Below the pieces are notes generated by a model. The model searched no databases and was not told where the DNA came from. It worked only from the letters and a program-made list of their open reading frames with translations. Below, piece by piece: positions 1 to 18,282 of a DNA stretch of 32,000 bases. The position numbers and the translations under genes are program-made. Every line of letters starts with the position of its first letter. The first letter of the stretch is position 1. The stretch spans positions 1,140,001 through 1,172,000 of the forward strand of contig OY781039.1 of assembly GCA_963676105.1 (NCBI GenBank), given 5' to 3'. Source of the DNA: Erysipelotrichaceae bacterium (GTDB taxonomy: Bacteria; Bacillota_I; Bacilli_A; Erysipelotrichales; Erysipelotrichaceae).

Positions 1-911
1 TTTGCAATTTCTTTAAGTTCATCGTCTAAAGTAACAACATGATCACTATCCCAACGTACTGGTCGAGTAACATGTAGTGCCACTTGTTCAAAGAATATTA
101 ACATGCTTGAAATCTTGTCACTGACTTTTTCAGTTGGATGATAATGTCCATTATCGAGTAAGCAAAGTAAATCATTCTTTGCGGCATAGTTCATATAAAA
201 CTCATGAGAGCCAACGGTATAGGATTCTACACCAATACCGAAAACTTTTGATTCAACGGCAATTTTCACCAATGACTTATCATAATCAATTGAAATTATT
301 TCATCTAATGATTTCTTTAGTCGCACACGTGGTGTTAAACGATCTGCAGGTGTATCTTTAAAACCGTCTGGAATCCAAATGTTCATCAGTGTTGGGCTTC
401 CAAGTTCTTTCGCAAAATATTCACTAATGCGAATACATGCTTGTCCATGTTCAACCCAGAACTTTCGAATAGTTTCATCCTCACTTGAAAGTGTTGCATT
501 CTCTGATAATGGATGTGAAAAATAGGTTGGATTAAAATCTAAGCCAACTTTATTCTTTTTTGCGAACTGTACCCATTTTTCAAAGTGCTTTGGCTCAAGT
601 TTATTACGATCAACCGTTTCTCCATCAAAAATGGCATAACTGGCATGTAAATTAATACGATGTTTGCCTGGAACTAATGATAATGCTTTTTCAATATCTG
701 CCATTAGTTCTTCAGGATTGCGAGCTGCTCCTGGATAGTTGCCTGTCGTTTGAATTCCTCCAGACAAATCACCTGAATTTTCAAAACCAGCAACATCATC
801 ACCTTGCCAACAATGCATTGAGATTGCGATTTTATCTAATTCTGCGATTGCCTTCTCAGTGTCTACATTAAACTTTGCATAAATGTCTTTTGCACTTTCA
901 TATCTATTCAT
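1..911 (-). CDS. rhaA: L-rhamnose isomerase, N-terminal ~303 codons (3' end lies beyond the left window edge)
   Basis: Absent from the ORF track because it runs off the edge. My minus-strand translation from ATG 911-909 reads [47 protein letters not shown]...[19 protein letters not shown]...[19 protein letters not shown]... with no stop down to position 1. Recognised as RhaA-type isomerase. The start overlaps the rhaB stop by 8 nt. Confidence 0.85.
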
Positions 912-2316
912 GTTTCTTTCCTCCACTATATTGATTAATACTAAATGTATTGCGTATTAATACCTTGCTTTCACTCATTGAATTAATTTCTTTTTGTGCG
1001 AGTAATTGCACAATAATATTTCCAATCGCTGTTCCTTCAATCGGACCAGCACTTACAGTACAACCCGTTTTTATGGATGTTACTTTATTCAAATAATCAG
1101 CTTGAGACCCGCCACCCACAATTTGAATTTTATTAATCGTCTTTCTACTTAGAGTCTCAAATTCTTCTTTTGTTTTGCGATAAGACTCAGCCAAACTGTT
1201 ATATACAACAGCCGCAATTTCATTTTCATTTATTGGTACTGCTTGATTTGTCTCAATGCAATAATCTTGAATTTCTTTAATCATGCTTTTAGGTGAAATA
1301 AATCGATTATCCTGACAATCAATGATGCTTTTAATACTTGAACTTTCAGCCATTTCACACCATTGTACATAGCTGTATTTTCCATTAAACTCACGACTAA
1401 CTTCTTGAATCAACCATAATCCCATAATATTTTTCAAATATAGGTATTCTTTGTTTACTCCACCAGAGTTAGTAAAGTTCAACTTTTGACTATCAACACT
1501 CGTGATGGCTTCTTTGACTAAGGTACCCATGAGCGACCATGTACCAGAGCTAATATATAGAGAGTCACTATCTTCATAAGGTAATGCAAGTACAGCTGAT
1601 GCTGTATCATGACTGGCAACTAATATGACTTCTGTATCAAAACCTATCTCTTCTACAATTGCTGGTCTTAATTGTCCTAATGAATAGCCAGGTTCTTCGA
1701 TTTTATTAAACATATCTTTGTTTCCAATGATTTCTAATAAATCTTGATCCCATGTATAAGTTGAACTATTTACCAATTGTGTCGTTGTTGCATTTGTATA
1801 CTCATTGACTATCTTTCCAGTCAGTAGAAAGTTTAAATACTCAGGAACCATTAAGAAACTTGCAGCTTGTTCAATATATTCTGGATGACTCTGTTTAATT
1901 GCCATCAATTGATAGATTGAATTAAACAATTGCTTTTGGATACCTGTTTTTTGATATAAAGATTCTTCAGAAATATATTTTCTTAATAAATCATCCATTC
2001 CTAGTGTTCTTTTATCTCGATAAGCAATATGATCACCTAAGACATTGTTATTTTTATCTAATAAAACAAAATCGACACCCCAAGTATCAATCGCCAAACT
2101 TTTAGGACATTTGTCTAATTTCTTGCATTCTTTTAAACCTTTAACTATTTCTGAAAAAAGATAGTTATAGTCCCAGCAAAGATGACCATTATTTTGACGA
2201 ACCCCATTTTCAAAACGATGTATTGTTTCAAGTACGAGTTTTTGATTTTCTATACTTCCAAGAATACATCTTCCACTTGATGCACCTATATCAATGGCTA
2301 AATAATAATTCATCAC
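904..2316 (-). CDS. rhaB: Rhamnulokinase (FGGY carbohydrate kinase)
   Basis: 470 aa ORF. N-terminal [10 protein letters not shown] phosphate-binding motif typical of FGGY kinases and rhamnulokinase-like length. Abuts the rhamnosidase-like gene (stop/start adjacent at 2316/2317) and overlaps rhaA. Confidence 0.85.
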
Positions 2317-4659
2317 TTAATCCTTTCTTTTTTGAATATGATAACGAACGTTTTTTCGTGTTTTATCAATGACAAGCTGATCGACATCATCACATTCAAT
2401 ATTCACATCATATTGATTATCAGCTGTTTTCTTCCAATCAATTGAAATCTTTCCGTGTGCGGTTTTCACATCACCTTTTGCCCATGTCAGTGTTGAAAAA
2501 TTTGGTTTAATCAAAACTTTATTAAAACCATTTCCATAAGGCTTAACCCCTAAAATACTGCTTGGCAATTCATATAAAACAAGTGCGCCCCATCCATGAC
2601 AATCACTACGACTATTTACATTATCTTCTTCACAAGTCGTTAGATTTTTATTCAACATGTCGCGCCATAAATCCCATTGGTCATCGGTATATTCATAAAG
2701 ATCACATTGTTCAAGTGCTCTAAAGAGATAAAACTTCATAGCAACTGAACATTGTACGAACTTATCTTGATTGTTTAATGTTTCAAGAAGAATTCTCTTT
2801 CCATCTATTGAATCAATAATCCCTGTTAATATGCCAAATACTTGGCAATGTTGACTATATTGATTTACAGCAGGACCATCCGTAATAAACCCATCAGTAT
2901 CCATTGAGTTGTCACGAATAGCTTCTTTTAATATTTCTGCAGAATTTCGATATTGATCTGCTAAATCTTGTAATTCTAGATAATCACAAATATCAATCGC
3001 ATAAGTTAATCCTAAAAGATAGAGTAAACTTTCCATGGTTATTGGACCTAAACGGATTGCGCTTGGAACCCCTATTGTTTTATTCCATTCTGGTGTCCAA
3101 TCTATGAATGACCATAATGGACTTTCAAATAATGGCGTTCCGATTTTCTTCAATAAACCATTGTCATCAATATTTCTTTGATAAAAATTAAGAATGTTCT
3201 GAATCGTGCTTAAATGCTCTGACATGAAACTTCTATCACCAAAATACATCATATGGTCATAGAGCATTCCAATATAATAAATTGAAAAACCAGGAATAAC
3301 ATTTGCTTCAAAATTGGGAGCACTCGCATTTAATAAGCCATCCATTTTAGTAGAGGCTTTAAAATCGTTCATACATCTTCTCGCTAAACGATCATCCATC
3401 GAAGTTGCATACGTATATAAGATTTGATTACGAGAATCCATTATGTACGATAGTTGTTCATAGAACGGACAATCTTCATAGGTATCATGCATACAACAAC
3501 GTAAAGTTCTTTCACTTATTTCCCAAATTTTCTCTAAACTATCATCTGATGTTTTTCCATAGGATAGTATATTTAAAGGATATTGAGCTTTGATATAGTT
3601 AAATGATTTTAATAGTAAAGCTTGATCTTGTGTTTCAATTTCTAATCTAATATATCTAAATGTACGAAACCAAAATGGTTCATAAATTTCATTTTCAGCT
3701 CCGAAAACTTTATATGTATCTGTAAAGCCAAATAATTGACCATTTTCTGCATCCGTACGATCACCTTTCACAGGGAATTGAGGACCACTTTCCCTGTGAA
3801 CAGGTGGATAAGCATAACATTCAGAACTTAGAATTGATATCTTACTGTCTTTACCACCACTCAACAAAAGCTGTAAAAAACCCGTTGTTTCTTCTCCAGC
3901 ATGAAGCTCGATGATTTCTTTCGTAAATGGAGGAACTGAAATTGATTGATCAGCTTGAAGAAAATCATTCCATTCATGCAAGTGATGTTTAGACTGTCTA
4001 ATTTTTGATATTTCTTTAAAGTGCGAATGATATTTCGTTAAAAATGGAATCGTTCTATCTTCTAATTGATGCTTATTTAAGATTGAATCGATTTCTGACA
4101 ATTCAGTTGCATGAACACTTTCCCAAGTAACTAAGTTACTTTCAACACTATGAAGCTTAATAAGGTCTTCTGTACTTTGGGCATGTTCAATAATATAAAG
4201 TGGCGCAAAATGTTCATCTTCTGCAAGTATCTCAGTCGGATGAATAAGTGCTTTCCACATTTCATCTGAAAAGAGATTTACTTCTTTTGCTGCTTCAGAT
4301 AGTGCCCCCATAAATAAACCTGTGGTATTTAATCTGATTAAACTATGATTACCACTTCGTTCTTTATTGGGATAGCTTAATACAGTAATGACAATTGAAT
4401 TAAACCCTTCTTTTAGGTAAGGATTTAAATTGATTTCATCATAAAACCATTCATGAAGATTACCTTTTTGAGGACCAAAGGATACAAATACTCCATTAAC
4501 AAAGCACTTATACTTTGATGTTGCACTAAGTCCAACGACATAATCCTTGTGTAAATCTTTAATTTTAATGATTTTTTTATAAGAACATAAAACAGGACGA
4601 GTTTCTACAATTTCTTTATGTTTATTTGAAACAATCCACGATCCTTCTAAGAATTTCAT
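2317..4659 (-). CDS. Putative alpha-L-rhamnosidase-like six-hairpin glycoside hydrolase (GH78-like)
   Basis: 780 aa ORF in the rhamnose operon. The C-terminal region (…SDCHGWGALVLYELP…) and overall size resemble bacterial rhamnosidase catalytic domains. The family call is from memory plus context only. Confidence 0.55.
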   Translation of the reverse strand: MKFLEGSWIVSNKHKEIVETRPVLCSYKKIIKIKDLHKDYVVGLSATSKYKCFVNGVFVSFGPQKGNLHEWFYDEINLNPYLKEGFNSIVITVLSYPNKERSGNHSLIRLNTTGLFMGALSEAAKEVNLFSDEMWKALIHPTEILAEDEHFAPLYIIEHAQSTEDLIKLHSVESNLVTWESVHATELSEIDSILNKHQLEDRTIPFLTKYHSHFKEISKIRQSKHHLHEWNDFLQADQSISVPPFTKEIIELHAGEETTGFLQLLLSGGKDSKISILSSECYAYPPVHRESGPQFPVKGDRTDAENGQLFGFTDTYKVFGAENEIYEPFWFRTFRYIRLEIETQDQALLLKSFNYIKAQYPLNILSYGKTSDDSLEKIWEISERTLRCCMHDTYEDCPFYEQLSYIMDSRNQILYTYATSMDDRLARRCMNDFKASTKMDGLLNASAPNFEANVIPGFSIYYIGMLYDHMMYFGDRSFMSEHLSTIQNILNFYQRNIDDNGLLKKIGTPLFESPLWSFIDWTPEWNKTIGVPSAIRLGPITMESLLYLLGLTYAIDICDYLELQDLADQYRNSAEILKEAIRDNSMDTDGFITDGPAVNQYSQHCQVFGILTGIIDSIDGKRILLETLNNQDKFVQCSVAMKFYLFRALEQCDLYEYTDDQWDLWRDMLNKNLTTCEEDNVNSRSDCHGWGALVLYELPSSILGVKPYGNGFNKVLIKPNFSTLTWAKGDVKTAHGKISIDWKKTADNQYDVNIECDDVDQLVIDKTRKNVRYHIQKRKD

Positions 4660-4716: not shown

Positions 4717-5700
4717 CTATGCTTTTTTTAGTTTTGCGGCAGTTGCCTTTTTATTGTGTTGGTAAGTATCCATACCAATGGTAGTTAACATAATTAAACC
4801 TTTGACTACATATTGGAAATAAATATTTAAGCCAGCTAGAGCCATACCATTACCTAAGATAGCGATAATAAGAATACCAGCAACACATCCATTAATCTTA
4901 CCTTCACCACCACGGATTGATACGCCACCTAACAATAGACCAACAATAATTGTAAATTCGATACCTACTGATGTTGAAGCAGTTGCTGCACCTATACGAG
5001 TTGTTTGAATCATTGCTGCTAAGCCATACATTGCACCAGCAAATAGTGAAATCATAATTTCAATTTTCTTAACATTAATGCCAGCTAAACGAGCAGCATC
5101 TTTATTGCCACCTAGTGCAAAGACATAACGTCCGAAGTAAGTTTTATTCATAATGAAGGCAAAGATAGCTAGTAGAACACCCGTAATTACAATCGCTACT
5201 GAGACATTCGTTCCAAATAATTTACCTTGACCAATAAACTTATAGGCATCTGTAAATCCACTAATTGATCTTGAATTAGATAATACATATGCCACACCTT
5301 GATAAATGACCATGGTGCCAAATGAAACAAAGATATACGGAATCTTTAAGATTTGACTAAGAATGGCATTAAAGCTTGATAACAACATCCCTACTAAAAT
5401 ACTAACAATGATTATTGACCATACAGGCCAGTGATATTCAGTTAATAAAATAGCTGAAATAACACCATTTATACTCATCGCATAACCAACGGATAAATCC
5501 ATATTCCCAGACATCATAATTAATGCGACGCCAAGTGCGGCAATAATAATGTATGCGTATTGATTTAAAATGTTGAGAATATTTCTTAATGTAAAGAAAT
5601 TATCTGCATTAAATGAAAAGATAACGGATATAACAAGTAATAATACCCATACGACATTACTTCGTATATAATGTCCGACATTTTCTGATAAATTTTTCAT
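4717..5700 (-). CDS. Sugar ABC transporter permease (RbsC/AraH-type)
   Basis: 327 aa, highly hydrophobic with about 8-10 predicted helices. Located directly downstream of the duplicated-ATPase gene (12 nt gap). Confidence 0.85.
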   Translation of the reverse strand: MKNLSENVGHYIRSNVVWVLLLVISVIFSFNADNFFTLRNILNILNQYAYIIIAALGVALIMMSGNMDLSVGYAMSINGVISAILLTEYHWPVWSIIIVSILVGMLLSSFNAILSQILKIPYIFVSFGTMVIYQGVAYVLSNSRSISGFTDAYKFIGQGKLFGTNVSVAIVITGVLLAIFAFIMNKTYFGRYVFALGGNKDAARLAGINVKKIEIMISLFAGAMYGLAAMIQTTRIGAATASTSVGIEFTIIVGLLLGGVSIRGGEGKINGCVAGILIIAILGNGMALAGLNIYFQYVVKGLIMLTTIGMDTYQHNKKATAAKLKKA

Positions 5701-5712
5701 CTCTTTACCCTC

Positions 5713-7191
5713 CTAAAGTCCTGATGATAATTCTAGTATTCTTTGTTGACTGAATTCGTGTTTAAGTAAATCACCGGTTTTATGACCTTCATGTAAAACC
5801 GCAATACGATCACTCATTCCAATCAACTCTTCCATTTCAGATGAGATCATCAGAATAGACATTCCTTGTTCGACTAATTGATTCATTAACTTATAAATCT
5901 CTTGTTTTGCGCCAACATCAATACCACGTGTTGGTTCATCGAAGATTAATATATCTGCTTTTGAAGCGAGTACTTTTGCCATAACCACTTTTTGTTGATT
6001 ACCACCACTAAGATTTTTAGCTAGTTGCTTCAATGAAGGTGTTTTGATTTGTAATGTATCACTGTAATATTGACTAATTTCATCAATCTTCTTTTTATCC
6101 ATAATCGTGAATTTACTGTAATTTTTAATACCCATTAACGATATGTTCCAATCAAGTGGAAACTCAAGGAATACACCTTCTCTTTTTCGATCCTCTGGAA
6201 TTAATCCAATACCCTCTGTAATTGCTTGTGTTGAGTTCTTAATGTTAACTTTTCTTCCTTTAACATAAAGATCTCCTTCTTGAATTTTAGCTTCACCAAT
6301 AATTAGTTTGGCAAACTCAGTCCGTCCGGCACCAATAAGACCAGCTAAACCGACGATTTCGCCTTTTTTGAGATCTAAGTTAATGTTGTAAACACCATTA
6401 CCTGATATATTATCCGCTTTTAGAACGACATCACCTATTTGAGCATTTCTTTGTGGAAATGATTCTGATAATACGCGTCCAACCATTAAGTTAACAAGTT
6501 CCTTACGATTGGTTTCTGCCATTGATTTCGTCGCAATATATTGTCCGTCTCTCATGATTGAAACGGCATCAGATATTTCAAATACTTCATCCATTCTATG
6601 ACTCACATAGATAATGGTAACGCCTTTTTCTTTTAGGCTTCGAATGATTTGAAAAAGTTTTTCAACTTCATTAATTGAAATAGCAGCACTTGGTTCATCC
6701 ATAATTAATATTTTTACATCTTTGGATATTGCTTTTGCAATTTCAACCATTTGTTGTTGTGCAGTTGATAAGCCACCAACCATACTGTAAGTATTTATAT
6801 TGACATTTAAATCACTAAATATTTGTTTAGTTCTTTGGTGCATTTCTTTTTTATCTTGAATATATTTTCCGCCAACTTGATCGCCTAGAAAAACATTTTC
6901 TGCGACATTCAATGATGGTACTAAATTAAACTCTTGATAAATAACACCAACACCTTTACTTTTTGACAACGATGGAGTTAATTTTTCAAATTCTTCACCG
7001 TCAATAATGACTGTCCCCTCGCTTTGATCAATCGCACCGGATATAATTTTAATCATCGTTGATTTACCCGCACCATTTTCACCCATTATTGAATGAATTT
7101 CACCAGCTTTGAAACTTAAGGATACATCGTCCAAGGCAGTTACCCCTGGATATATCTTTGTTATATGTTTAAGTTCTAAAACTTTTTTCAT
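5713..7191 (-). CDS. Sugar ABC transporter ATP-binding protein (tandem ATPase, RbsA-type)
   Basis: 492 aa. First half has Walker A GENGAGKST, signature LSTAQQQ and Walker B ILIMDEPS. Second half has GLIGAGRTE, LSGGNQQK and ILIFDEPTRGID. Confidence 0.9.
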   Translation of the reverse strand: MKKVLELKHITKIYPGVTALDDVSLSFKAGEIHSIMGENGAGKSTMIKIISGAIDQSEGTVIIDGEEFEKLTPSLSKSKGVGVIYQEFNLVPSLNVAENVFLGDQVGGKYIQDKKEMHQRTKQIFSDLNVNINTYSMVGGLSTAQQQMVEIAKAISKDVKILIMDEPSAAISINEVEKLFQIIRSLKEKGVTIIYVSHRMDEVFEISDAVSIMRDGQYIATKSMAETNRKELVNLMVGRVLSESFPQRNAQIGDVVLKADNISGNGVYNINLDLKKGEIVGLAGLIGAGRTEFAKLIIGEAKIQEGDLYVKGRKVNIKNSTQAITEGIGLIPEDRKREGVFLEFPLDWNISLMGIKNYSKFTIMDKKKIDEISQYYSDTLQIKTPSLKQLAKNLSGGNQQKVVMAKVLASKADILIFDEPTRGIDVGAKQEIYKLMNQLVEQGMSILMISSEMEELIGMSDRIAVLHEGHKTGDLLKHEFSQQRILELSSGL

Positions 7192-7267: not shown

Positions 7268-8239
7268 TTATTCAAAGCTAGCAGCATTTAATTTTGTATA
7301 TGAGCCAGGAATGAATTTGTCTGCAGGTACTGTTCCATCTTGTAGAGCTTGCCATGCAGCCATTGTGCTTTCTGCTAAATCTGCTAAAGCAACTAAACCA
7401 CGAATCATTGAAGCATCTGTTGTAGAGTCTTGAACAGCTTGAACTGTGTCAGCTGAAGCACCTACTGCAAAGATACCAACTTTTGAAGCATCTACATCAA
7501 CAGTTTGTGCTAAAACTTCGTTAGCAGCAATCGCAAATGATGCATCATGTACCAGAATAACGTTTACATCTGGATATTCAGCTAAAGCAATATTCATGAG
7601 TTCTTGAACTTTATCTAAAGAGTCACCAGCACCCATTTGATAATCATGAACTAAATCAACTTTTGCATTATCAGCAATCGCTGCTAATCCATCGTCACGT
7701 TGTTGTGCAGTTGGATTTGCTGGGTATGAAATTAGAATAGCTTTTACACTTCCATCTTCTGCATCAGCAAATGTTGTATCTACCCATTCAGAAGCGAGTT
7801 CTGCAGCAGCAATACCTAATGCTGATTCATCTAAGCCAATAAATACGTCATAAGCTTCTTCGTTTTCAAATGGTACAAAAGTAATAATTTTTGTACCTGC
7901 TTCACGAGCAGCTACACAAGCATCTGCTAAACTTGCAGGATCCATTGGTCCAACTAAGATACCTTCGACATTTTGAGTTACTAAGTTTTCAATATCTGAA
8001 ACTTGTTTAGCAACATCCATTTCAGCAGAAGCTGTAATAACTTCGTAACCAGCTTCTCCAAATAGATTTTCCATATTTGTTTGAAGACCAGTAAAGAACT
8101 CTGCCCCTAGTGTCATAATACTTAAACCGAATTTACCGCTTCCTGCTTCTTCTTCGGCAGGTGTATCATTAGAACTACATGCGGTTAACATACCAATACT
8201 TAAAGCAACTACAAATAATAATTTGAATAACTTCTTCAT
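7268..8239 (-). CDS. Sugar ABC transporter substrate-binding lipoprotein (likely rhamnose, by context)
   Basis: 323 aa. Signal peptide with lipobox LTAC, followed by a periplasmic-binding-protein type I-like sequence. First gene after a candidate promoter. Confidence 0.8.
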   Translation of the reverse strand: MKKLFKLLFVVALSIGMLTACSSNDTPAEEEAGSGKFGLSIMTLGAEFFTGLQTNMENLFGEAGYEVITASAEMDVAKQVSDIENLVTQNVEGILVGPMDPASLADACVAAREAGTKIITFVPFENEEAYDVFIGLDESALGIAAAELASEWVDTTFADAEDGSVKAILISYPANPTAQQRDDGLAAIADNAKVDLVHDYQMGAGDSLDKVQELMNIALAEYPDVNVILVHDASFAIAANEVLAQTVDVDASKVGIFAVGASADTVQAVQDSTTDASMIRGLVALADLAESTMAAWQALQDGTVPADKFIPGSYTKLNAASFE

Positions 8240-8272: not shown

Positions 8273-8302
8273 ATTATAGAATTTTTACGAAAGTGCTTAC
8301 AA
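8273..8302 (-). promoter_or_regulatory. Candidate sigma-A promoter for the ABC transporter genes
   Basis: The minus strand reads TTGTAA-18 nt-TATAAT, about 35 nt upstream of the AGGAGG RBS of the binding-protein gene. Confidence 0.4.
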
Positions 8303-8318
8303 TGAACTATTTCTATGA

Positions 8319-9590
8319 TTAGGTGTCTTTTTTTATCATTATCGCGTTTCGTCTATCTAATTGATAAAAGTGAGGTGATTGGATATTAAACAAATAACTA
8401 TTACAGTTCTTAAGATAAACTAAAATATCTTTTTCAACTAAGGTATTAAGCGCTTTTATTAAATGATTCCATTCAAAATCATCCATTTCACTAAAAATAT
8501 CATCAAGAATTAAAACTTGAAAATTCTGCAATGATACTCGATATATCAAAAGTAGTAGCTTTTGTAGATGCGTTAAATTTTGCACATTATCATAATCTTT
8601 GATAATATTTGCGAACCTTCTAGCTTCTTGATAGGTAAAGTCAATTAAACCCTCATTTAAAATGGACAGGTTTGATAATTTTGAATAAACACCTAAGCAT
8701 ACATTTTCTTTTATTGAGAGATTGTTTACTAAATAGTCATCCACATTCTTTGCGATCTCATACGTTTTTTTCTGTTCAAGCCATTTTTCTAAGATTACAT
8801 CGCCATATTCAAAAATTTGAGAACCTGAATGAGTTTTCATTTTCAATCTTTTTTGGAGTTTATTCACATCATTAATATCATTGTCATTAATATAGTCCAT
8901 AAATGAGATCTTATCTTTGAATTCAAAGACTAAGCCCGAATCAGAAATATATTGAATTCGAGTGGCAATATCAACGAATTCATCCATCTCGTCACATAAG
9001 ATTACAAAAGCAACTCCTTGTTTTGAATAGGTTTTAATATTCTCAATATATTGCATTTTTTCTTTATATGAATTTTTTGAAGTTTCATTAACGACAATAA
9101 TTTTTGCGTGATTAATTACAGACTTGGCAATACAAACCATTTGTTGTTCATATTCAGATAAATCTTGTACAAGTTTATTTTTAATATCACTTAAACCTAA
9201 TTTATTCAATATATTGTGTGTTTGCACATGAGCTGCTTTTTGATTGAACATGCTTAATGGATTATTTCGTTCCCTTAAAGCAAATAAATTGTGTTCAATA
9301 GTCATCGATGTAACTAAGCTATTCGTTGATTCAGAACTTGATATACCATTTGAAAAAGCTACTTGAGCGTCATAATTCTGATAATGTTTTTCATTAACAT
9401 ATATTCGTCCATTAAGCGCTTTTGCGTAGCCTAATATTAAATTTGAAACGAGTCTCTTTTTTGAAAAGGTAGAGCTAACAATACAAATGACATCTCCTTC
9501 AAATACTGATAGATCATAATGAAAAAGATGTTCGTTATTTTCATTTTTCGCATCAATATTTTTGAGCCAGAGATATTCTTTTTTTGACAT
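8319..9590 (-). CDS. Degenerate ABC-ATPase-like protein (all nucleotide-binding motifs lost)
   Basis: 423 aa. Aligns by eye with the neighbouring RbsA-type ATPase, but Walker A is SSTFSKKR, the signature is LSEYEQQ and Walker B is IIVVNETS. The second half retains only LTHLQKLLL...VLILDDIFSEMD. The start overlaps the kinase stop (TAATG). Confidence 0.6.
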   Translation of the reverse strand: MSKKEYLWLKNIDAKNENNEHLFHYDLSVFEGDVICIVSSTFSKKRLVSNLILGYAKALNGRIYVNEKHYQNYDAQVAFSNGISSSESTNSLVTSMTIEHNLFALRERNNPLSMFNQKAAHVQTHNILNKLGLSDIKNKLVQDLSEYEQQMVCIAKSVINHAKIIVVNETSKNSYKEKMQYIENIKTYSKQGVAFVILCDEMDEFVDIATRIQYISDSGLVFEFKDKISFMDYINDNDINDVNKLQKRLKMKTHSGSQIFEYGDVILEKWLEQKKTYEIAKNVDDYLVNNLSIKENVCLGVYSKLSNLSILNEGLIDFTYQEARRFANIIKDYDNVQNLTHLQKLLLLIYRVSLQNFQVLILDDIFSEMDDFEWNHLIKALNTLVEKDILVYLKNCNSYLFNIQSPHFYQLDRRNAIMIKKDT

Positions 9591-10366
9591 TATTGTTCTT
9601 TCAACCGGTTGTCATATTTAATGAGTTCTTTATCCGACACACGTGGTACTATGATTTCCATCGTCGTTCCTATATTGATTAGACTCTTAACATTTAACCC
9701 AAAATCATGACCAAAGAACATTTTTAAACGTGCATTTACATTTAACAATGCAATTCCACTTTTTCGTGATAAACGTTCAAATTTGATATCTGAGGACGAC
9801 AGTTTTTCATTAATATTACGAAGTAAATCAGTCTCAATTCCTACACCATTATCCTTAATTTGAATATAAACTTTCTCTTTTGTGCCAAAGATATGTATTG
9901 TGATTAATCCTGGGCTTAATTTATTTTCAAGTCCGTGTGTTATTGCGTTTTCAATGAGTGGCTGAAGTGTCATTTTTGGAATGTAACATTCTTTAAGTTC
10001 TTCCTCTTCAATTTCAATCTCAAGATTTAAACGATCCTCAAATCTAAATTTTTGAATATAATAGTAGTCATTTATATGATTTAGTTCTTCAGAGATTTTA
10101 ACGAAATCACCAGTGCTACTAATACTATATCTAAAAAAACGTGATAGTTTCTCAATCATATTTGCGATTTCGTTTTCGTTATACTTCAAAGCTTCACTTC
10201 GAATTGAATCAAGTGTGTTATATAAAAAATGGGGATTGATTTGACTTTGAAGCATTTTATATTCGATTTCCCAGGTATTTTCACTTGGGCTTAATTTTTG
10301 ACTTTCAATATTACTATCTTCTACCGATGACTTTTTTATACAGTCAATAATTTTCCTTAATTTCAT
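9590..10366 (-). CDS. Histidine kinase catalytic core (YesM/His_kinase-type) lacking any sensor or transmembrane region
   Basis: 258 aa. H-box QINPHFLYNTLDSI with His at residue 46, N-box ENAITHG and G-box KDNGVGI. No hydrophobic segment or HAMP region precedes the H-box. Confidence 0.8.
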   Translation of the reverse strand: MKLRKIIDCIKKSSVEDSNIESQKLSPSENTWEIEYKMLQSQINPHFLYNTLDSIRSEALKYNENEIANMIEKLSRFFRYSISSTGDFVKISEELNHINDYYYIQKFRFEDRLNLEIEIEEEELKECYIPKMTLQPLIENAITHGLENKLSPGLITIHIFGTKEKVYIQIKDNGVGIETDLLRNINEKLSSSDIKFERLSRKSGIALLNVNARLKMFFGHDFGLNVKSLINIGTTMEIIVPRVSDKELIKYDNRLKEQ

Positions 10367-11994
10367 TATGAATACAACTTTCTGTATTCAGATGGTTTAA
10401 TTCCGGTAACTTTTCTAAATAATTTTGAAAAATATTTTTGATCTGGATAGCCCACTCGTGCAGATATTTCTTTAACAGACTCTGCTGTTTCAGCTAAAAG
10501 TTTTTTTGATTTCTCAATACGATATTCCGCCAGGTACTCTGCATAACCTTTACCAAGTTCATTTTTAAATAATTTAGAAAAATAATTTGGAGATAACCCC
10601 ACATGATCAGCAACATCTTCAAGCGTAATAGCTTCGGCATAGTGAGACTCAATAAATTGAATAGCTTTTTCAGTGGGTAAGATATGTACTTGCTTTTGTT
10701 CAAGCAAATAAGTTTCAAAATGATTTTCAATAACTTTTAAGGTTGATCGAATAAAATCCACAAAACTATAGGTATGAGTTGAACTCCACCACCCCTCTAA
10801 CTTTTGTCTTTCAATCTCATCTGAGTTTGCAATGAAGAGTGAGAGAATAGCATCAAGTAAATACTGTTGGAAATCAATCATGGAACCTGGATTTGCACTT
10901 TGGTATTTTTCACATCGACGGATAATCTCTTGATGAATATCATAGATTGTATTTACCTTTAGATATTCATAAGCGTCTTTCAATTGTTCAATTATTTTAT
11001 CGCCAAGTATCTCTTGTGCTGAAAAACTAGGTAAATTTTCAATCATATCGTACGAAATAATTTTGTTTGCACCATAAATAAACTTTGCAGATTCAGCGAA
11101 AATAGCCTCGTCCATAAGGTGGATTATATCGTTTAAATCCAAACTTTGATTACTATAACCAAAGGCTAAATCAAAATCATCAAAAATCTCAGTTAGATTA
11201 CGTATTGAATAATAAATATTCGAAATAATCTGGTTAATATTCGAATCATAATTAGATACGTAATTTACTAAGATAAATATTCCATTTCGACTATAGTGAT
11301 AAATTAGATTTAAATCTTTTGATTCAATACCTTTTAAAATAATTCCTAATTTTTCTCTAAATAAAGAATTTTGGTCCAGTAAGTGATCAATACTGGTTTG
11401 AATATAAATCATTCGATAAGCATTCTCTTCAAATGATTTTGGTAAAATATCAAGAAACAAATTTAGATTAAAAGATCGATGTTGGATTGTACTCATAAAT
11501 AATTGATTAAAAAAATCACTATATTTAATATTATTATATTTATCAAAATATTCATCACGCTCAGATTTGATAATGGTTGTAGATTTTTTATCTTTTATAA
11601 TCTGAATAGATTTATTGATAGCTTCATTCAGTTGAATCTCATCAATAGGTTTTAGAATATAATCCACAACACCATACTGCATAGCGCTTTTCGCATATTC
11701 AAAATGCTTATAACCACTTACAATAATAAAAGAACTCTCAATATTATGCTTTTGACACTGTTCAATTAAGGCTAAACCATCATAACCCGGCATTTTGATA
11801 TCGGTTATGACGATATCTGGTTTATTAGCAATGATACTTTCAAGCGCATCTATTCCGTTATAACAAACATCAACGATTTCAATATTGTGTTGATCCCAAT
11901 GACCAAGAAGACGAACTAAGTCCGCCATTCTCCTTTCATCTTCAGCAATGATACATTTATACTGTTTAGCCATTTTACACCTCACAAACAACAC
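10366..11994 (-). CDS. Response regulator with C-terminal AraC-type HTH (YesN-like)
   Basis: 542 aa. N-terminal receiver (IIAEDE...DIVITDIKMPGYDG...KP) and C-terminal AraC signature (...LSPNYFSKLFK...GYPDQKYFSKLFRK). The true start is probably the MAKQYK methionine at 11973. Confidence 0.85.
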   Translation of the reverse strand: MLFVRCKMAKQYKCIIAEDERRMADLVRLLGHWDQHNIEIVDVCYNGIDALESIIANKPDIVITDIKMPGYDGLALIEQCQKHNIESSFIIVSGYKHFEYAKSAMQYGVVDYILKPIDEIQLNEAINKSIQIIKDKKSTTIIKSERDEYFDKYNNIKYSDFFNQLFMSTIQHRSFNLNLFLDILPKSFEENAYRMIYIQTSIDHLLDQNSLFREKLGIILKGIESKDLNLIYHYSRNGIFILVNYVSNYDSNINQIISNIYYSIRNLTEIFDDFDLAFGYSNQSLDLNDIIHLMDEAIFAESAKFIYGANKIISYDMIENLPSFSAQEILGDKIIEQLKDAYEYLKVNTIYDIHQEIIRRCEKYQSANPGSMIDFQQYLLDAILSLFIANSDEIERQKLEGWWSSTHTYSFVDFIRSTLKVIENHFETYLLEQKQVHILPTEKAIQFIESHYAEAITLEDVADHVGLSPNYFSKLFKNELGKGYAEYLAEYRIEKSKKLLAETAESVKEISARVGYPDQKYFSKLFRKVTGIKPSEYRKLYS

Positions 11995-12000
11995 ATAAGA

Positions 12001-12882
12001 TTAATCGATAAAATACTGTGCAATATCTTTAAGTGCTTCATCCGTTTCTGGTGAAGGAAATAAAGTAAACACATGAAATAAACCTTCCCACTCTTTTAAT
12101 TTTACATCTACGTCAGCCTCTTTACATTTATTGTAAATGAGAATTGCATCATCATATAAAACTTCTTCAGTTCCTACATGAATATAGAGTGGCGGAAAAT
12201 CTTTAAAATCGCCATAAGCGGGTGAAACATAAGGTGAATTAAAATCACTACCTTCATAATAAGGTACGACAGATTCAATGGTTATCATTGGATCACGTTC
12301 ATTACGTTCAGTATGTGACGCTAAATCTAAATTCTGACCAGCAACTGGAGAAAATACACATGTTTTACCAGGACATTCGATTCCATGATCCTTTAAATAT
12401 AGATTAGTTGTTAAAACTAACATAGCTCCAGCTGATTCACCAAACATATAAATATTCTTGGCATCATAACCTTCATTTAGTAAATACTGATAGGCATTCA
12501 CACAATCATTTAATCCTTGAGGGTGCTTTGCTTCTGGCCATTGTCCGTAATCAACAGAATATGCATCCATCTTTGCATTCTTCATTAAATCCATAAACAT
12601 CTTGCGTCGCGACATTACACTTCCAATAGAAAATCCACCACCATGAATAAAAAGAATAATTTTCTCTTTGTTTTTTGTGCCTTTTAAGTGGTAGAATTCA
12701 CCTTTTGTCAAATCATTATCAATGACTTCGATATCAATTAATTCATCTGTATAAGTACCAATCTTTTCATCAATTGATTGACGAGTTACTACAGCTGACT
12801 CGGGTGTTGTCTCTTGTCCTTGGTTTGCCTTTTTTTCATTGGCTAACATTTCGATAAACATTTTTATTTCTTTACTTAACAT
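12001..12882 (-). CDS. Alpha/beta hydrolase, HSL-type esterase
   Basis: 293 aa. Oxyanion-hole HGGGF and nucleophile elbow GESAG motifs. Confidence 0.75.
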   Translation of the reverse strand: MLSKEIKMFIEMLANEKKANQGQETTPESAVVTRQSIDEKIGTYTDELIDIEVIDNDLTKGEFYHLKGTKNKEKIILFIHGGGFSIGSVMSRRKMFMDLMKNAKMDAYSVDYGQWPEAKHPQGLNDCVNAYQYLLNEGYDAKNIYMFGESAGAMLVLTTNLYLKDHGIECPGKTCVFSPVAGQNLDLASHTERNERDPMITIESVVPYYEGSDFNSPYVSPAYGDFKDFPPLYIHVGTEEVLYDDAILIYNKCKEADVDVKLKEWEGLFHVFTLFPSPETDEALKDIAQYFID

Positions 12883-12995
12883 ATTTTGTCTCCTTAAAAG
12901 TGTCTTATTTTATGAATTGTTTTAATATTTTATGATTTGCTTTAATTCTATATTAATTCTATTTCCATCAAATGGATATATGATAGAGTGAAGTT

Positions 12996-13898
12996 ATGAA
13001 AACATACTTAGTTATTGATGTTGGTGGCACTGCCATCAAATATGCTCGCATGAATGAGCAAGCAAAAATTTTAAGCAAAGGGGAAATCGCAACACCACAC
13101 ACTAGTTTAGATGACTTTGTTGATGCTATCGCAAATCTATACAAGCAAAACAATGATGTTGATGGTATCGCAATGAGTGCACCAGGTCGTATTGATGCAG
13201 AAACTGGCTACATGTACACAGGAGGCGCAATTGAATTTAATCGAGAAGTGGCCATGAGCGATTTAATCAGGGCCAAAGTTGGTGTAGAAGTGACTATTGA
13301 TAATGATGCCAAATGCGCAGCGAATGCAGAGGTTTGGAAAGGATCTCTTAAAGATGTTAAATGTGGAATGGTCTTAACCATCGGAACAGGTATTGGTGGT
13401 GCAGTTATCATTGATGGAAGAGTACATCGAGGCCATAATTTCACCTCTGGTGAAGTATCATTCTTACCTGTAACTCTTTTACCTGATGGTCATCCCCTTA
13501 AAATTTGGGCCATGATAAATTCTACTGGTAACTTAATTGAAAACTATGCAAAAGTTAAAAATTTAGATGTTAGTGATGTTAATGGAAAAATCTTCTTTGA
13601 TGCAATTCAAGATAAAGATGTTGAAGCAATCAAAATTCTAGATGATTTTGCTGAAAGTTTTGCGATTGGTTTGTTTACTATTCAAACATTAATTGACACA
13701 GAAACAATTGCGATAGGTGGTGGCATTTCTGCTCAACCTATCTTAATTGAAACCTTGAATAAAAAGACTGATGAACTCTTTGAGAGCCTTAACTGGGCTC
13801 CTCAGAAGAGAATGAACATTGTACCTTGTCAATTTGGTAATGATAGTAATCTTATTGGAGCACTTTATCATCATCTAAATACAATTCATAAACATTAA
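12996..13898 (+). CDS. ROK family sugar kinase
   Basis: 300 aa. N-terminal LVIDVGGTAIKYA ATP-binding motif and central DNDAKCAA and GTGIGGA motifs typical of ROK kinases. Confidence 0.8.
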   Translation: MKTYLVIDVGGTAIKYARMNEQAKILSKGEIATPHTSLDDFVDAIANLYKQNNDVDGIAMSAPGRIDAETGYMYTGGAIEFNREVAMSDLIRAKVGVEVTIDNDAKCAANAEVWKGSLKDVKCGMVLTIGTGIGGAVIIDGRVHRGHNFTSGEVSFLPVTLLPDGHPLKIWAMINSTGNLIENYAKVKNLDVSDVNGKIFFDAIQDKDVEAIKILDDFAESFAIGLFTIQTLIDTETIAIGGGISAQPILIETLNKKTDELFESLNWAPQKRMNIVPCQFGNDSNLIGALYHHLNTIHKH

Positions 13899-13925
13899 GT
13901 AGATTGTTATCAATCTACTTTTTTA
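13898..13925 (+). terminator. Rho-independent terminator between convergent genes
   Basis: AGTAGATTG-ttat-CAATCTACT followed by TTTTTT. It overlaps the 3' end of the convergent MBL gene. Confidence 0.7.
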
Positions 13926-14741
13926 TTTAATGCGATTAATATCATAGACAATATTGCCAAATTTTCCATCAAGCCGTGACATATCAGAGTTAATTGCCTT
14001 GGCAATATGTACCGTTCGTCCCATAAATTGAAATGGTATATTATCCACGTTGTTTGCGATTATATCATCACATAGATTAATCACATCATCCAGGCATGTT
14101 TTTGGTGCATCCCCACTGCCATGAAATAAATATGCTTTATCCCACATGGATTCAAATTTTTTAATTCTTAGAAGGTTGTTTTTATAGTCAGTTAATGTAG
14201 GACAATCTTCATCAAACATAAATGTAAAGTTATTACAGTCATCACCAAAGATGATGGTTCTTTCTTCTTTTATAACTAACATCACACTGCCTAAAGTATG
14301 ACCAGGGCATTCTAGAACTTGGATATTTATACCACCTAAATCGAAAATTTGATTGTCATTTAAATCCTTAAATTTAAGTTCTTTTACTGCTGCGAAATCT
14401 TTTGGATCATACTCAATACTCATAGAATCAAGATAACCTTTTCGCATTGAATGTTGTACATGAATTTGATATAAGTTCTTATCTTTTTTAGAAAGATAAA
14501 CATCTTTGAAAAAAGATACACCGCCAACATGATCTAAGTGACCATGCGTCAAAATAACAGTAATTGGTAGTGATGTTAAGCCTTTGATATAAGTTTCTAA
14601 ATCCCCTAAACCTATACCAGTATCAATTAGTGCAGCTCTATTATCTCCTTCAATCAAGTACATATATTCACCAGATATCGATTGAATTCTAGTAATTGAA
14701 TTAGTAATTTTATTTGATTTAAAATAGTTTGGTGATTTCAT
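13923..14741 (-). CDS. MBL-fold metallo-hydrolase
   Basis: 272 aa with the HxHxDH motif (THGHLDHVGG). Confidence 0.8.
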   Translation of the reverse strand: MKSPNYFKSNKITNSITRIQSISGEYMYLIEGDNRAALIDTGIGLGDLETYIKGLTSLPITVILTHGHLDHVGGVSFFKDVYLSKKDKNLYQIHVQHSMRKGYLDSMSIEYDPKDFAAVKELKFKDLNDNQIFDLGGINIQVLECPGHTLGSVMLVIKEERTIIFGDDCNNFTFMFDEDCPTLTDYKNNLLRIKKFESMWDKAYLFHGSGDAPKTCLDDVINLCDDIIANNVDNIPFQFMGRTVHIAKAINSDMSRLDGKFGNIVYDINRIK

Positions 14742-14790
14742 ATCTTCTATCCTTTATTTATCATCAATTATACGTTAAAGATAAAATGAT

Positions 14791-14819
14791 AAAAATCCCT
14801 TACTTAAAAAGGGATTTAA
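14791..14819 (-). terminator. Terminator after the oxidoreductase gene
   Basis: The minus strand reads AAATCCCTT-loop-AAGGGATTT followed by TTATCATTTT. Confidence 0.55.
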
Positions 14820-14822
14820 TAT

Positions 14823-16784
14823 TTATATATCTAAAGCAGCGTGATGTCCTTGATACATCGCGGTTGTAATGGTCGAAACTCGATTACAGTCACCAATCAC
14901 TTTTACTATTGGTGCAACATCTAACATTTCATCAACGACTTTTCGATTTGCGCGTTGACCTAGTGCACAAATCACTGTTTCACCAGCAACAAGAACTTTA
15001 TCACCATTTAGATTCTCAACTACAACACCTTCAGCGCTAACATTTAAACCTTTGTGATTCAAGAAAACATTAATGCCATATTTTTCAATCTCAGCTAAGA
15101 GTAATGGACGATGGCGAATATTCGCATCAGGGGATAACTTATCTCTCATTTCTACAAGACTTACCTGTTTACCTTCTTGCGCAAAATTTATAGCTGCTTC
15201 ACAGCCTGCTAAACCACCACCTAGTACAACAACAGTATCCTTTACTTGATCAGCTTGTAAATGCAGATTATTTACAATAATGACATTATCGCCATCAATT
15301 CCAGGGAGTGGTGGTACAAGCGGAGTCGAGCCAGATGCGACAATCACAACATCTGCATTTTCCTTCTCTGCATACACTTTTGTCACTTCTGTATTGAGTC
15401 TTACATCAACGCCTTCAGCTTCAACTAGTTTACCTAAGCTTACACCTAAGTTATACATATCCATTTTGAAAGGAATGGCTTGTTCGCCAATTAGAATGCC
15501 ACCTACTTCGTCGTTCTTTTCGCAAAGCACAACTTCATGCCCTCGCTTTGCCGCAACAAGTGCTGCTTGTAATCCACCAGGACCTGCCCCAACAACAAGG
15601 ACTTTCTTTTTATTACGCGCTGGTAAAATTTCAAGTCCGTCAATCTCACGGCCGATCATTGGATTAACCGTACAACGTCTTGTACCATTTTCAGCACGTT
15701 CAGCCATACAAACAAAACATCTTAAACATTTAATGATTTTTTCTTCTTCACCAATCATAACTTTAGTAGGTAATTCAGGATCCGCTAATAATGCTCGAGC
15801 CATTTCAACGATGTCAGCTTTACCAGATGCGATGATTTCTTCCATTTTTTCAGGATCATTAAGACCACCTACAGTAGCAACTGGTACACTCACATTTTTC
15901 TTAATTTCTGCGGCTAAGTAAACGTTTGGTCCATGTTCTAAAAACATCGATGGATGAGTTACACCAAATCCTTTTTGATAAGTACCTGCTGAAACATGTA
16001 ATAAATCAATCTTGCTTTCAACAATTTTAGCAATTTCAACACCTTCTGCTAAATCATACCCACCATCAAATAATTCTGAACCACTCATTCTAAATTCGAT
16101 TGGAAAACCTGGACCAACAGCAGCACGTATACTATCTAAAACTTCACAAACGAAACGTGTTCTATTTTCTAGTGTTCCGCCATATTTATCGGTTCTTTTA
16201 TTAAAGAATGGTGACAGGAATTGATTGATTAGCCAACCGTGACCACCATGAACCATGACCATTTCAAAGCCAGCTTTTTTAGCTAAAGCTGCTTTTTCGC
16301 CATAAGCTTCTACAATTTTTGAAATAAGATCTTGTGTTAATTCTTTAACTTCACGACCATCAGGTCTCACACCAGCACTTGGACCCCATTGAGCTAGACT
16401 TCCTTTTTTATCTTTGTCTACTAAATAAGTACCTGCATATTGTCCAGAGTGAGATAACTCAACACTCGCAATCGCACCATGACGTCTTATCGCATCTGCA
16501 GTATATGTAAAACTTGCTAATGAATCTACGGTTTGTAAATCTAAGTGATACATATGTGATGCTTCTGTTTTTGGATGAACAACAAGTTCACTAACTGTTA
16601 CACTTGCGACGCCACCTTTTGCACGATTTTCATAGAATGCTGTAGATTTAGGACCAATGGTACAATCCTTTGTAATATCGGTTCCACCCATTGGTGCACC
16701 AAACATTCTATTTCTAAAATGCACATTACCAATTTGAATTGGTTTACTTAAATTTGGGAATTTTCTTTCCATAATGATCTCCAT
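14823..16784 (-). CDS. Enoate reductase / 2,4-dienoyl-CoA reductase-like flavoenzyme (OYE FMN domain + 4Fe-4S + FAD/NAD(P) domain)
   Basis: 653 aa. N-terminal OYE-like TIM-barrel sequence, cysteine cluster CLRCFVC...C, then two Rossmann GxGxxG motifs (VVGAGPGG, VLGGGLAG). Confidence 0.8.
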   Translation of the reverse strand: MEIIMERKFPNLSKPIQIGNVHFRNRMFGAPMGGTDITKDCTIGPKSTAFYENRAKGGVASVTVSELVVHPKTEASHMYHLDLQTVDSLASFTYTADAIRRHGAIASVELSHSGQYAGTYLVDKDKKGSLAQWGPSAGVRPDGREVKELTQDLISKIVEAYGEKAALAKKAGFEMVMVHGGHGWLINQFLSPFFNKRTDKYGGTLENRTRFVCEVLDSIRAAVGPGFPIEFRMSGSELFDGGYDLAEGVEIAKIVESKIDLLHVSAGTYQKGFGVTHPSMFLEHGPNVYLAAEIKKNVSVPVATVGGLNDPEKMEEIIASGKADIVEMARALLADPELPTKVMIGEEEKIIKCLRCFVCMAERAENGTRRCTVNPMIGREIDGLEILPARNKKKVLVVGAGPGGLQAALVAAKRGHEVVLCEKNDEVGGILIGEQAIPFKMDMYNLGVSLGKLVEAEGVDVRLNTEVTKVYAEKENADVVIVASGSTPLVPPLPGIDGDNVIIVNNLHLQADQVKDTVVVLGGGLAGCEAAINFAQEGKQVSLVEMRDKLSPDANIRHRPLLLAEIEKYGINVFLNHKGLNVSAEGVVVENLNGDKVLVAGETVICALGQRANRKVVDEMLDVAPIVKVIGDCNRVSTITTAMYQGHHAALDI

Positions 16785-16842
16785 TCTTATAGTGAATAAA
16801 GCTATTAATGATTAAATATCATAATAGCTTGTTGAATATAAA

Positions 16843-18099: not shown

Positions 18100-18199
18100 G
18101 TAATCCTCCTTAATATTTAGACACGAATATCTATACCCTTCTATTTGTTAAATCATTAACAAAGGGCTTCGTTTAATGTTATATCACAGTATTCCATAC

Positions 18200-18215
18200 A
18201 TGTCTAGTATTACAT
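18200..18215. promoter_or_regulatory. Candidate PadR operator (ATGT-N8-ACAT dyad)
   Basis: ATGTctagtattACAT sits in the divergent MFS/PadR intergenic region, and a third ACATGT lies at 18240-18245. The dyad matches the motif reported for PadR-type operators. Confidence 0.5.
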
Positions 18216-18282
18216 GTTTATTATTATAGGTATTTGTTTACATGTTATTAACACTATATAATAATTAAAGTAAATAGAGGGC

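Follow-up and report, generated by a model that had tools for sequence, protein, structure and literature searches.

A Sensor-Less Histidine Kinase Paired with a Degenerate ABC ATPase Paralogue: A Probable Three-Component Signalling Module beside a Sugar Transporter

How histidine kinases that lack a sensor domain receive their signal is a question that keeps returning and has few answers so far, among them flux sensing of the Bce type, PhoU/PhoR, and binding-protein co-sensors. We analysed a stretch of 32,000 nucleotides (G+C about 31%) from an Erysipelotrichaceae bacterium (assembly GCA_963676105.1, contig OY781039.1, positions 1,140,001 to 1,172,000), hereafter the window, in which a response regulator, a short histidine kinase, and a degenerate ATP-binding cassette (ABC) protein are encoded next to a sugar transporter of the CUT2 type. 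Our conclusion, to which we give a probability of about 60%, is that these three proteins form a three-component signalling module, with the degenerate protein (the pseudo-ATPase, a paralogue of the transporter ATPase) acting as its input and probably docked on the CUT2 permease. The parts of this reading are not equally firm. It is very likely that the kinase is unable to sense alone and that the pseudo-ATPase is its input subunit; docking of the pseudo-ATPase on the CUT2 permease, so that it reports the conformational state of the permease, has close to even odds.

The three genes lie on the minus strand, in the mechanically called open reading frames (ORFs) 10366..11994 (542 aa), 9590..10366, and 8319..9590, and are chained by two TAATG stop/start overlaps. 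Both overlaps had been reported in a preliminary description of this DNA and were seen directly in the sequence (table 1). The first gene was confirmed as an AraC-type response regulator: in the 542-aa ORF, Pfam found Response_reg at residues 15-127 (76 bits) and, spanning residues 448-539, HTH_AraC (94 bits) and HTH_18 (85 bits), which gives the receiver and the C-terminal double AraC-type helix-turn-helix of a YesN-type regulator. The type assigned to the regulator was thus right, but the start assumed for it at GTG 11994 is less likely than ATG 11973, because the latter is preceded by a GAGGTG ribosome-binding site and yields a product of 535 aa, in line with the 535-537 aa of the orthologues. 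We therefore regard ATG 11973 as most likely the start. The GTG lies only 6 nt past the stop of the upstream esterase gene (12001..12882), with which the regulator may be co-transcribed.

The second gene encodes a kinase of 258 aa that, as first described, consists only of the H-box and the ATPase core. Pfam assigned His_kinase (PF06580) to residues 35-113 (99.9 bits) and HATPase_c to residues 134-242 (39 bits), with no other domain. The phospho-acceptor His46 lies within QINPHF, in an H-box that was invariant in 14 relatives, and N140, D172, G174, G176, and G204 of the N, G1, and G2 boxes were invariant across the relatives compared. The usual sensor module (two transmembrane helices, an extracellular domain, and HAMP) is absent: 34 residues precede the DHp domain and hold no hydrophobic segment. 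The AlphaFold2 (AF2) model (pLDDT 80) has residues 1-26 disordered and DHp and CA domains in the remainder. In the classical relatives of this kinase, the phospho-acceptor lies at residue 290-420.

A homology search with the kinase retrieved 2,672 relatives, and our description covers the closest 120, all of which were short (247-346 aa). They fall into three classes: soluble kinases of about 250-260 aa without transmembrane helices (His at about 40-49), intermediate forms of about 280-292 aa with none or one (His at about 74-83), and kinases of about 300-345 aa with a hairpin of two transmembrane helices and no extracellular loop (His at about 100). Most kinases of the short-kinase family are still anchored in the membrane by two helices, and the full solubility of the window kinase is a derived state. 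The short-kinase clade has lost the extracellular sensor domain, and the lineage of the window the membrane anchor too.

The third gene encodes a protein of 423 aa that keeps the fold of the ABC nucleotide-binding domain (NBD) and lacks what a functional ABC ATPase needs at Walker A, Q-loop, Walker B, and H-loop. Pfam gave it one weak ABC_tran match (48 bits, residues 26-170), whereas the neighbouring ATPase of 492 aa matched ABC_tran twice (182 bits). The two proteins are 24% identical (E 2e-13, BLASTP). The pseudo-ATPase is laid out as NBD1 (residues ~1-225), a variable linker (~226-275), and a shortened NBD2 (~276-423) without Walker A. In the alignment with the adjacent ATPase, the Walker A sequence of NBD1, GENGAGKST, is replaced by SSTFSKKRL, where the lysine position is still occupied by Lys and the glycine-rich loop is gone; the Gln of the Q-loop has become Ser, and SHR of the H-loop has become CDE. 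Walker B changes from ILIMDEPS to IIVVNETS, which bears out the earlier observation (IMDEPS to VVNETS), although only the Asp is exchanged (for Asn) and the Glu is kept in the window copy. In NBD2, the Walker A region is deleted, as had been stated, and VLILDD and NCN stand at Walker B and the H-loop. The more general claim that every nucleotide-binding motif was lost holds for the glycine-rich loop, the Q-loop, and the H-loop, but not for the Walker A Lys, the Walker B Glu, and the signature. The replacement of LSTAQQQ by LSEYEQQ had been counted as a loss, and this count was mistaken, because L-S-x-x-x-Q-Q is essentially kept.

The best NCBIfam matches of the pseudo-ATPase were AraG (70 bits), AlsA (65 bits), and RbsA (63 bits), roughly tenfold or more below the curated cut-offs of 689-810, and no curated NCBIfam model captures the family. 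Its AF2 model (pLDDT 74.8, pTM 0.54) matched MJ1267, PotA, MacB, LptB, and BceA with E values of 1e-13 to 1e-14 and TM-scores (target) of 0.75-0.82. On the evidence of motifs and alignments, the protein derives from the ATPases of CUT2 sugar transporters and is predicted to be unable to hydrolyse ATP; in the pseudo-ATPases of the window clade, ATP binding has probably been lost as well.

The pairing of kinase and pseudo-ATPase was then examined across genomes and metagenomes. On the kinase side, 80 metagenome loci were fetched by kinase peptide patterns only, and their ORFs were classified with a home-made profile of the partner (the pseudo-ATPase) and with the window's own proteins. A kinase was called short when its His lay before about residue 160, and was counted only where 300 nt or more of sequence was available downstream; long classical kinases had their His at residue 250-420 and two transmembrane helices around a large loop. 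A partner ORF stood directly downstream in all 26 short-kinase loci (26/26), at gaps of -95 to +50 nt and mostly of -4 to +3. In contrast, none of the 40 loci with long classical kinases had one (0/40), and a binding protein or a regulator was found downstream there. In a neighbour-joining tree of the kinase catalytic cores of this sample, every partner-linked kinase fell in a single clade. Four kinases seemed to be short without a partner; these apparent exceptions were dismissed as assembly fragments of long kinases because they nest in the tree beside near-identical long kinases. Where the context of short kinases was fetched individually, an ABC_tran-like gene of 396-505 aa lay immediately downstream in every one.

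From the partner side, the targeted look-ups included four representatives taken from down the ranking of the HMMER search described below and, in addition, P0251, which was picked for its unusual length. A PF06580 kinase lay immediately upstream in 4/4, 2/2, 1/1 (P0251), and 4/4 cases (the four from the ranking), and so at every pseudo-ATPase locus inspected. The window itself has all elements of the module: a regulator with receiver and AraC domains, a short PF06580 kinase, and a degenerate tandem-NBD gene within a few nt. The co-occurrence of kinase and pseudo-ATPase, which the preliminary description had left to a wider search, is essentially obligate both ways. The alternative that the short kinase is a truncated remnant was ruled out, because it is a member of a whole clade of sensor-less kinases. 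At one locus (L045 144-2355), the deepest branch of the short-kinase clade in the sample, a partner-like ORF of 520 aa lies on the opposite strand, convergent with the kinase; this arrangement may be an inversion or a mis-assembly.

The size of the partner family depended strongly on the method of search. A word-index homology search with the partner, both as a single sequence and as a profile, recovered only about 10 members, the family being too divergent. A contig scan with the partner alignment, which used a single degenerate pattern, returned only 4 true loci (including L012 and L013) along with ordinary ABC ATPases; the organism names met there were Lachnospiraceae, Eubacteriales, and Bacillota. 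An exhaustive HMMER profile search covered 1.84 billion representatives, and its best 150 matches, 147 of them new, were classified. Among the 147 new matches listed, 96 were family-like (without Walker A2 and without hhhhDE[PA] in both domains), 30 were canonical tandem ATPases, and 21 were mixed. Family-like matches persisted to rank 150, and the family comprises at least about 100 clusters at 50% identity. Both this extent and the usual two-helix anchor of the kinases go beyond what the preliminary description had seen.

The degeneration is general in the family and uneven in degree. In motif tables of about 40 partners, retention was 9% for the Q-loop Gln, 15% for the catalytic Glu, 3% for the H-loop His, and about 58% for the NBD1 Walker A lysine, and Walker A2 was found in none (0 of about 40). 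The GxxGxGK[ST] P-loop of NBD1 was kept in one third of family members and lost in two thirds. The window clade, in which the glycine-rich loop is gone too, is among the most degenerate. None of the family members examined had the complete catalytic set. Active CUT2 ATPases have a second Walker A with Arg in place of Lys (GLIGAGRTE), which a strict GK[ST] pattern would misclassify as degenerate; this was corrected in the counts. One partner (L029, 2701-4089) had no Pfam ABC_tran match at E <= 0.001, yet scored 163 bits with the family profile, and such degenerate members will be annotated as hypothetical proteins.

The pseudo-ATPase was also followed among its close relatives. These are rare: four were found, at 64, 63, 40, and 39% identity, all with the same degenerate motifs. 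The contigs of three of them (P0002, P0003, and P0004) had the regulator, a kinase of 258-261 aa, the pseudo-ATPase, a binding protein, an ATPase of 492 aa, and a permease in the same order as in the window, and the nearest relative of the locus was in GCA_942492995.1. Between the window and its two nearest relatives, nonsynonymous divergence (dN) of the pseudo-ATPase was 0.23-0.27 and synonymous divergence (dS) was at least 2, that is, saturated; its evolutionary rate was about equal to those of the regulator and the rhamnosidase. Because dN lies far below the saturated dS, the gene is under purifying selection rather than decaying, and its ORF is intact, with the degenerate motifs, in 5 lineages down to 39% identity. 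The preliminary description had named three findings that would speak against its interpretation: functional Walker motifs in homologues together with decay of this copy, full-length orthologues of the kinase, and a lack of co-occurrence. None of the three was found, and its overall interpretation is supported.

Compared with the orthologous locus L005, the window's transport proteins were 91% (binding protein), 89% (ATPase), and 94.5% (permease) identical, with a binding-protein dS of 0.9, and the members of the regulatory trio were 72%, 78%, and 64.5% identical, with dS of at least 2 or not computable. Either the regulatory module would evolve much faster than the transport half, or the two halves would differ in history through recombination.

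Indirect support for docking on a permease comes from two distant relatives. In P0251 (811 aa), a degenerate tandem NBD (residues 2-467; Walker A1 GLNDSGIGL, Walker A2 absent) is fused to a CUT2-type BPD_transp_2 permease domain (530-790) with about six hydrophobic segments. The gene order there, on a contig of 850 kb, is regulator, two-transmembrane kinase of 335 aa, fusion, binding protein, intact ATPase of 506 aa, and a second permease. At L029, the kinase, the partner, and a permease of 302 aa are chained by 4-nt overlaps, and a binding protein and a real ATPase follow. The permeases on the sensor side of these two loci are 24-29% identical to the transport permeases. Elsewhere, the gene next to the partner is that of the binding protein, or the active ATPase and permease come at once. 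Moreover, the partner family conserves an "E-N-x-F" segment after the Q-loop (Asn in 90%, Phe in 80%) while the catalytic residues are lost. This post-Q-loop segment is known from ABC importers, MalFGK2 among them, to line the groove that takes up the permease's coupling helix, and its conservation is consistent with a retained permease interface. A mirror-tree comparison of 14 loci, whose pairs are not independent and which is soft evidence only, gave r = 0.84 (partial 0.77) between partner and kinase distances and r = 0.55 (partial 0.22) between partner and real ATPase distances, which fits a partner that belongs to the regulatory module.

Several points weigh against the reading with which we began. 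The E-N-x-F segment may be retained for structural reasons and not as an interface, and the mirror-tree outcome is equally expected if the partner has nothing to do with the transporter. Among the short-kinase loci with 3.3 kb or more of downstream DNA (about 15), roughly six lacked a CUT2 ATPase or permease in the available flank (L021, L022, L027, L038, L044, and L046; L104 is similar, with a convergent LysR gene next). These trio-only loci imply that regulator, kinase, and pseudo-ATPase are the invariant core, that adjacency to a transporter is not universal, and that a purely cytoplasmic role is possible. The window has a single permease gene, so that the active ATPase and the pseudo-ATPase would have to take turns at its product or compete for it. 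AF2 confidence was only moderate for NBD2 and for the two-domain arrangement of the pseudo-ATPase (pTM 0.54). We infer both the physical contact between kinase and pseudo-ATPase and the docking on the permease in this organism. As for what follows the trio where no transporter does, L021, L038, L044, L046, and L104 have unrelated convergent genes, and L027 (3186-6547) has an apparent membrane-fusion protein and an RND-type efflux pump, judged from N-terminal sequences only.

If the three proteins form a signalling module as proposed, the pseudo-ATPase would sit on the cytoplasmic face of a CUT2 permease. In the window, it would share the only permease of the cluster with the active ATPase; in some relatives, a dedicated or fused permease paralogue would take the place of the shared one. 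The conformation of the pseudo-ATPase would depend on the docking of the sugar-loaded binding protein or on the cycling of the transporter, and it would switch the bound kinase between its kinase and phosphatase states. Once phosphorylated, the AraC-type regulator would turn on the promoter before the binding-protein gene and so the expression of the transporter and of the rhamnosidase and rhamnose catabolic genes; this direction of regulation is again something that we infer. A stronger version, which we hold only tentatively and at somewhat less than an even chance, is that pseudo-ATPase, CUT2 permease (shared, dedicated, or fused), and binding protein together make a non-transporting ABC "receptor" that switches the sensor-less kinase. 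Occupancy of the binding protein would be passed through the permease to the dead NBD and from there to the kinase. If true, two-component systems would have here a new mechanism of transmembrane input, one that would be widespread among the Clostridia of gut and rumen and would have arisen by duplication and inactivation of a transporter motor subunit.

The main rival explanation, which we consider unlikely, is that the pseudo-ATPase is a purely cytoplasmic input domain that binds the kinase and senses a cue inside the cell, such as an imported sugar or a metabolite made from it, a nucleotide at the degenerate site, or the active ATPase, without docking on any permease. The trio-only loci, the covariation of the partner with the kinase and not with the transporter ATPase, and the full solubility of the window kinase all fit this explanation, and the third of the family with an NBD1 P-loop could bind nucleotide. 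However, two thirds of the family, the window clade among them, have lost that loop, so that nucleotide binding cannot be the conserved function. Nor does the protein have any extra ligand-binding domain, the sole segment outside the NBDs being the variable linker, which was modelled with low confidence. The permease fusion and the overlap-coupled permease gene point toward membrane docking, and so does the two-helix anchor of most kinases of the clade.

It is improbable that regulation of the transporter is the main role of the pseudo-ATPase, for example by braking the permease in competition with the active ATPase, and that its link to the kinase reflects co-regulation rather than signal input. 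Its descent from CUT2 ATPases, the frequent adjacency of CUT2 transporters, and the existence of a permease fusion would all suit such a role, but it leaves unexplained why the gene constantly stands downstream of a sensor-less kinase and is translationally coupled to it, why trio-only loci exist, and where the kinase would then get its input. The last explanation, that the 423-aa gene is a decaying ATPase duplicate and the kinase a truncated remnant, both functionless, draws on the lost catalytic motifs and the low Pfam and NCBIfam scores, and we rejected it as extremely improbable on conservation, dN/dS, and clade structure, the ORFs being intact in every lineage down to 18-40% identity with dN far under dS, in at least about 100 clusters at 50% identity, with synteny and overlap coupling strictly kept and the H, N, and G boxes of the kinase invariant across the clade.

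Table 1. Positions of the three-gene module, the transporter cluster, and associated features in the window
Feature	Coordinates	Strand	Evidence
YesN-type response regulator: receiver, middle region of ~300 aa, AraC-type helix-turn-helix	10366..11973	-	Pfam, orthologue length, ribosome-binding site
TAATG stop/start overlap, regulator/kinase	10364..10368	-	Read directly in the sequence
Soluble YesM/LytS-type histidine kinase, 258 aa: DHp (His46) and catalytic domain	9590..10366	-	Pfam, hydrophobicity, AF2
TAATG stop/start overlap, kinase/pseudo-ATPase	9588..9592	-	Read directly in the sequence
Tandem ABC NBD protein, 423 aa, predicted catalytically dead, CUT2-derived (RbsA/AraG/XylG-type)	8319..9590	-	Pfam, NCBIfam, motifs, AF2, BLASTP
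Sigma-70-like promoter TTGTAA-18-TATAAT in the 78-nt gap before the binding-protein gene	8273..8302	-	10/12 match; conservation
Lipoprotein solute-binding protein of the CUT2 transporter, lipobox LTAC	7268..8239	-	Pfam Peripla_BP_4
Intact tandem CUT2 ABC ATPase, 492 aa, transporter drive	5713..7191	-	ABC_tran x2; NCBIfam XylG/AraG/RbsA 513-529 bits; all motifs
CUT2 permease, 327 aa, BPD_transp_2, sole permease gene of the cluster, candidate docking site	4717..5700	-	PF02653
Alpha-L-rhamnosidase	2317..4659	-	Pfam Bac_rhamnosid6H/_C
FGGY sugar kinase	904..2316	-	Pfam FGGY_N/_C

The promoter before the binding-protein gene, which had been proposed earlier, is probably the target of the regulator. 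It is a close match, and its -35/-10 pair is conserved across four orthologous intergenic regions (L005, L001, and L003 among them) whose flanks diverge; on the other side, the promoter scan as a whole gave 34 sites against 47 expected from shuffles, so that such sites are not enriched.

The transporter had been called a rhamnose transporter. The context agrees with this, given the rhamnosidase and the FGGY kinase in the window and RhaA and a class II aldolase next to them in the orthologous loci L001 and L005, but the binding protein scored only 33 bits with the RhaS model, whose cut-off is 342. The sugar, rhamnose or a rhamnoside, is thus read from the gene context. An Abhydrolase_3 esterase, a ROK protein, and a two-domain oxidoreductase of the Old-Yellow-Enzyme type (Oxidored_FMN and Pyr_redox_2, about 650 aa) accompany the rhamnose cluster in the window (12001-18840), L005 (1-7557), and L001 (17270-19219). 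In L001, the oxidoreductase lies between the rhamnosidase and the rhamnulokinase; the window and L005 additionally have a metallo-beta-lactamase-fold protein, an MFS transporter, and a PadR regulator. From these neighbours, and in view of the ene-reductases of gut bacteria, one may speculate that the cluster acts on plant rhamnosides, possibly flavonoid rhamnosides, rather than on free rhamnose. An ORF of 213 aa on the plus strand (15280-15921), antisense within the oxidoreductase gene (653 aa), is of low complexity and rich in Ser, Thr, and Pro, and is almost certainly spurious. In a distant module (L103 8712-11004), a kinase of 312 aa and a partner of 464 aa stand beside a CUT2 transporter, and genes for a GH3 glycosidase and an alpha-L-rhamnosidase come next, so that a link to rhamnoside use recurs beyond the window clade.

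Taken together, the module is large in number and strictly conserved, occurs mostly in gut, rumen, and fermentation bacteria of the Lachnospiraceae type, and would have a dead ABC motor domain in place of the kinase's sensor. It offers a testable hypothesis for the regulation of many sugar-utilisation loci in gut anaerobes and accounts for genes labelled "sugar ABC transporter ATP-binding protein" whose products, by their motifs, cannot be ATPases; metabolic reconstructions should leave them out when transporter ATPases are counted. The loci also make up a natural evolutionary series, in which the permease is fused to the partner, separate but dedicated, or shared, and the kinase may be fully soluble. 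No such pairing was found in the literature that we searched in full text, an absence that is not proof (PMC3899296 is unrelated).

Several known systems resemble parts of this module. In the BceRS-BceAB system, the kinase depends on an ABC transporter to perceive the signal. This transporter is an active exporter whose ATPase, BceA, works, and its permease, BceB, is contacted by membrane helices of the kinase. As in the Bce modules of Bacillota, which sense bacitracin, the kinases studied here lack a sensor domain of their own and ABC transporter genes lie next to those of the two-component system. Many members of the present kinase clade are also anchored, like Bce kinases, by a two-helix hairpin only. 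BceABS entries (PDB 8g4c/8g4d) were among the structure matches of the pseudo-ATPase model. Unlike Bce modules, the present system has a sugar importer of the CUT2 type that works with a binding protein, a PF06580 kinase (YesM/LytS type), a regulator of the AraC type, and, as a conserved third component, a separate gene for a pseudo-ATPase; Bce systems are not known to have a dedicated dead ATPase. The window permease is of the BPD_transp_2 (CUT2) type and not an FtsX-type permease with a large extracellular loop, and the window kinase has no transmembrane helix, so that the module is not of the Bce type.

In PstSCAB-PhoU-PhoR phosphate signalling, the kinase, which has no extracellular sensing domain, follows the state of an ABC importer on the cytoplasmic side by means of an accessory protein, and a cytoplasmic adaptor between importer and kinase is what we propose here. 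However, PhoU is not an ABC domain, PhoR has transmembrane segments and a PAS domain, and the two are not encoded in an overlap-coupled kinase-adaptor order. UhpC, an MFS membrane protein that binds the ligand itself, is a transporter paralogue acting as the receptor for the kinase UhpB. As in UhpABC and the eukaryotic transceptors, a non-transporting paralogue of a transporter component would have been turned into a signalling input; unlike UhpC, the paralogue here is the cytoplasmic ABC ATPase subunit, and ligand recognition would remain with the binding protein and the permease. In CFTR, TAP, and the second site of CUT2 ATPases, one site is degenerate and the other active, and transport is still driven. 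The pseudo-ATPase likewise has lost catalytic residues within an otherwise normal ABC fold, but both of its sites appear dead, Walker A is gone from NBD2, and an intact ATPase is encoded separately alongside.

Further related systems are XylFII-LytS-YesN of Clostridium beijerinckii and CuaD-CuaS-CuaR of Ruminiclostridium cellulolyticum, in which an extracellular paralogue of the binding protein contacts the extracellular domain of the kinase (PMC10384115, PMC5663094). They share with the present module a PF06580 kinase, a regulator with receiver and AraC domains, a sugar ABC operon as the target, and a third protein from the ABC toolkit. In contrast to them, the kinase studied here has no extracellular domain and the third component is a cytoplasmic paralogue of the ATPase, apparently dead; the cluster has a single binding-protein gene, with a lipobox. 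The long kinases of our metagenome sample had the classical arrangement, in which the pseudo-ATPase was never present. Thus, the module belongs to a known kind, transporter-coupled two-component signalling, and a dedicated dead paralogue of the motor subunit as its third component is apparently undescribed.

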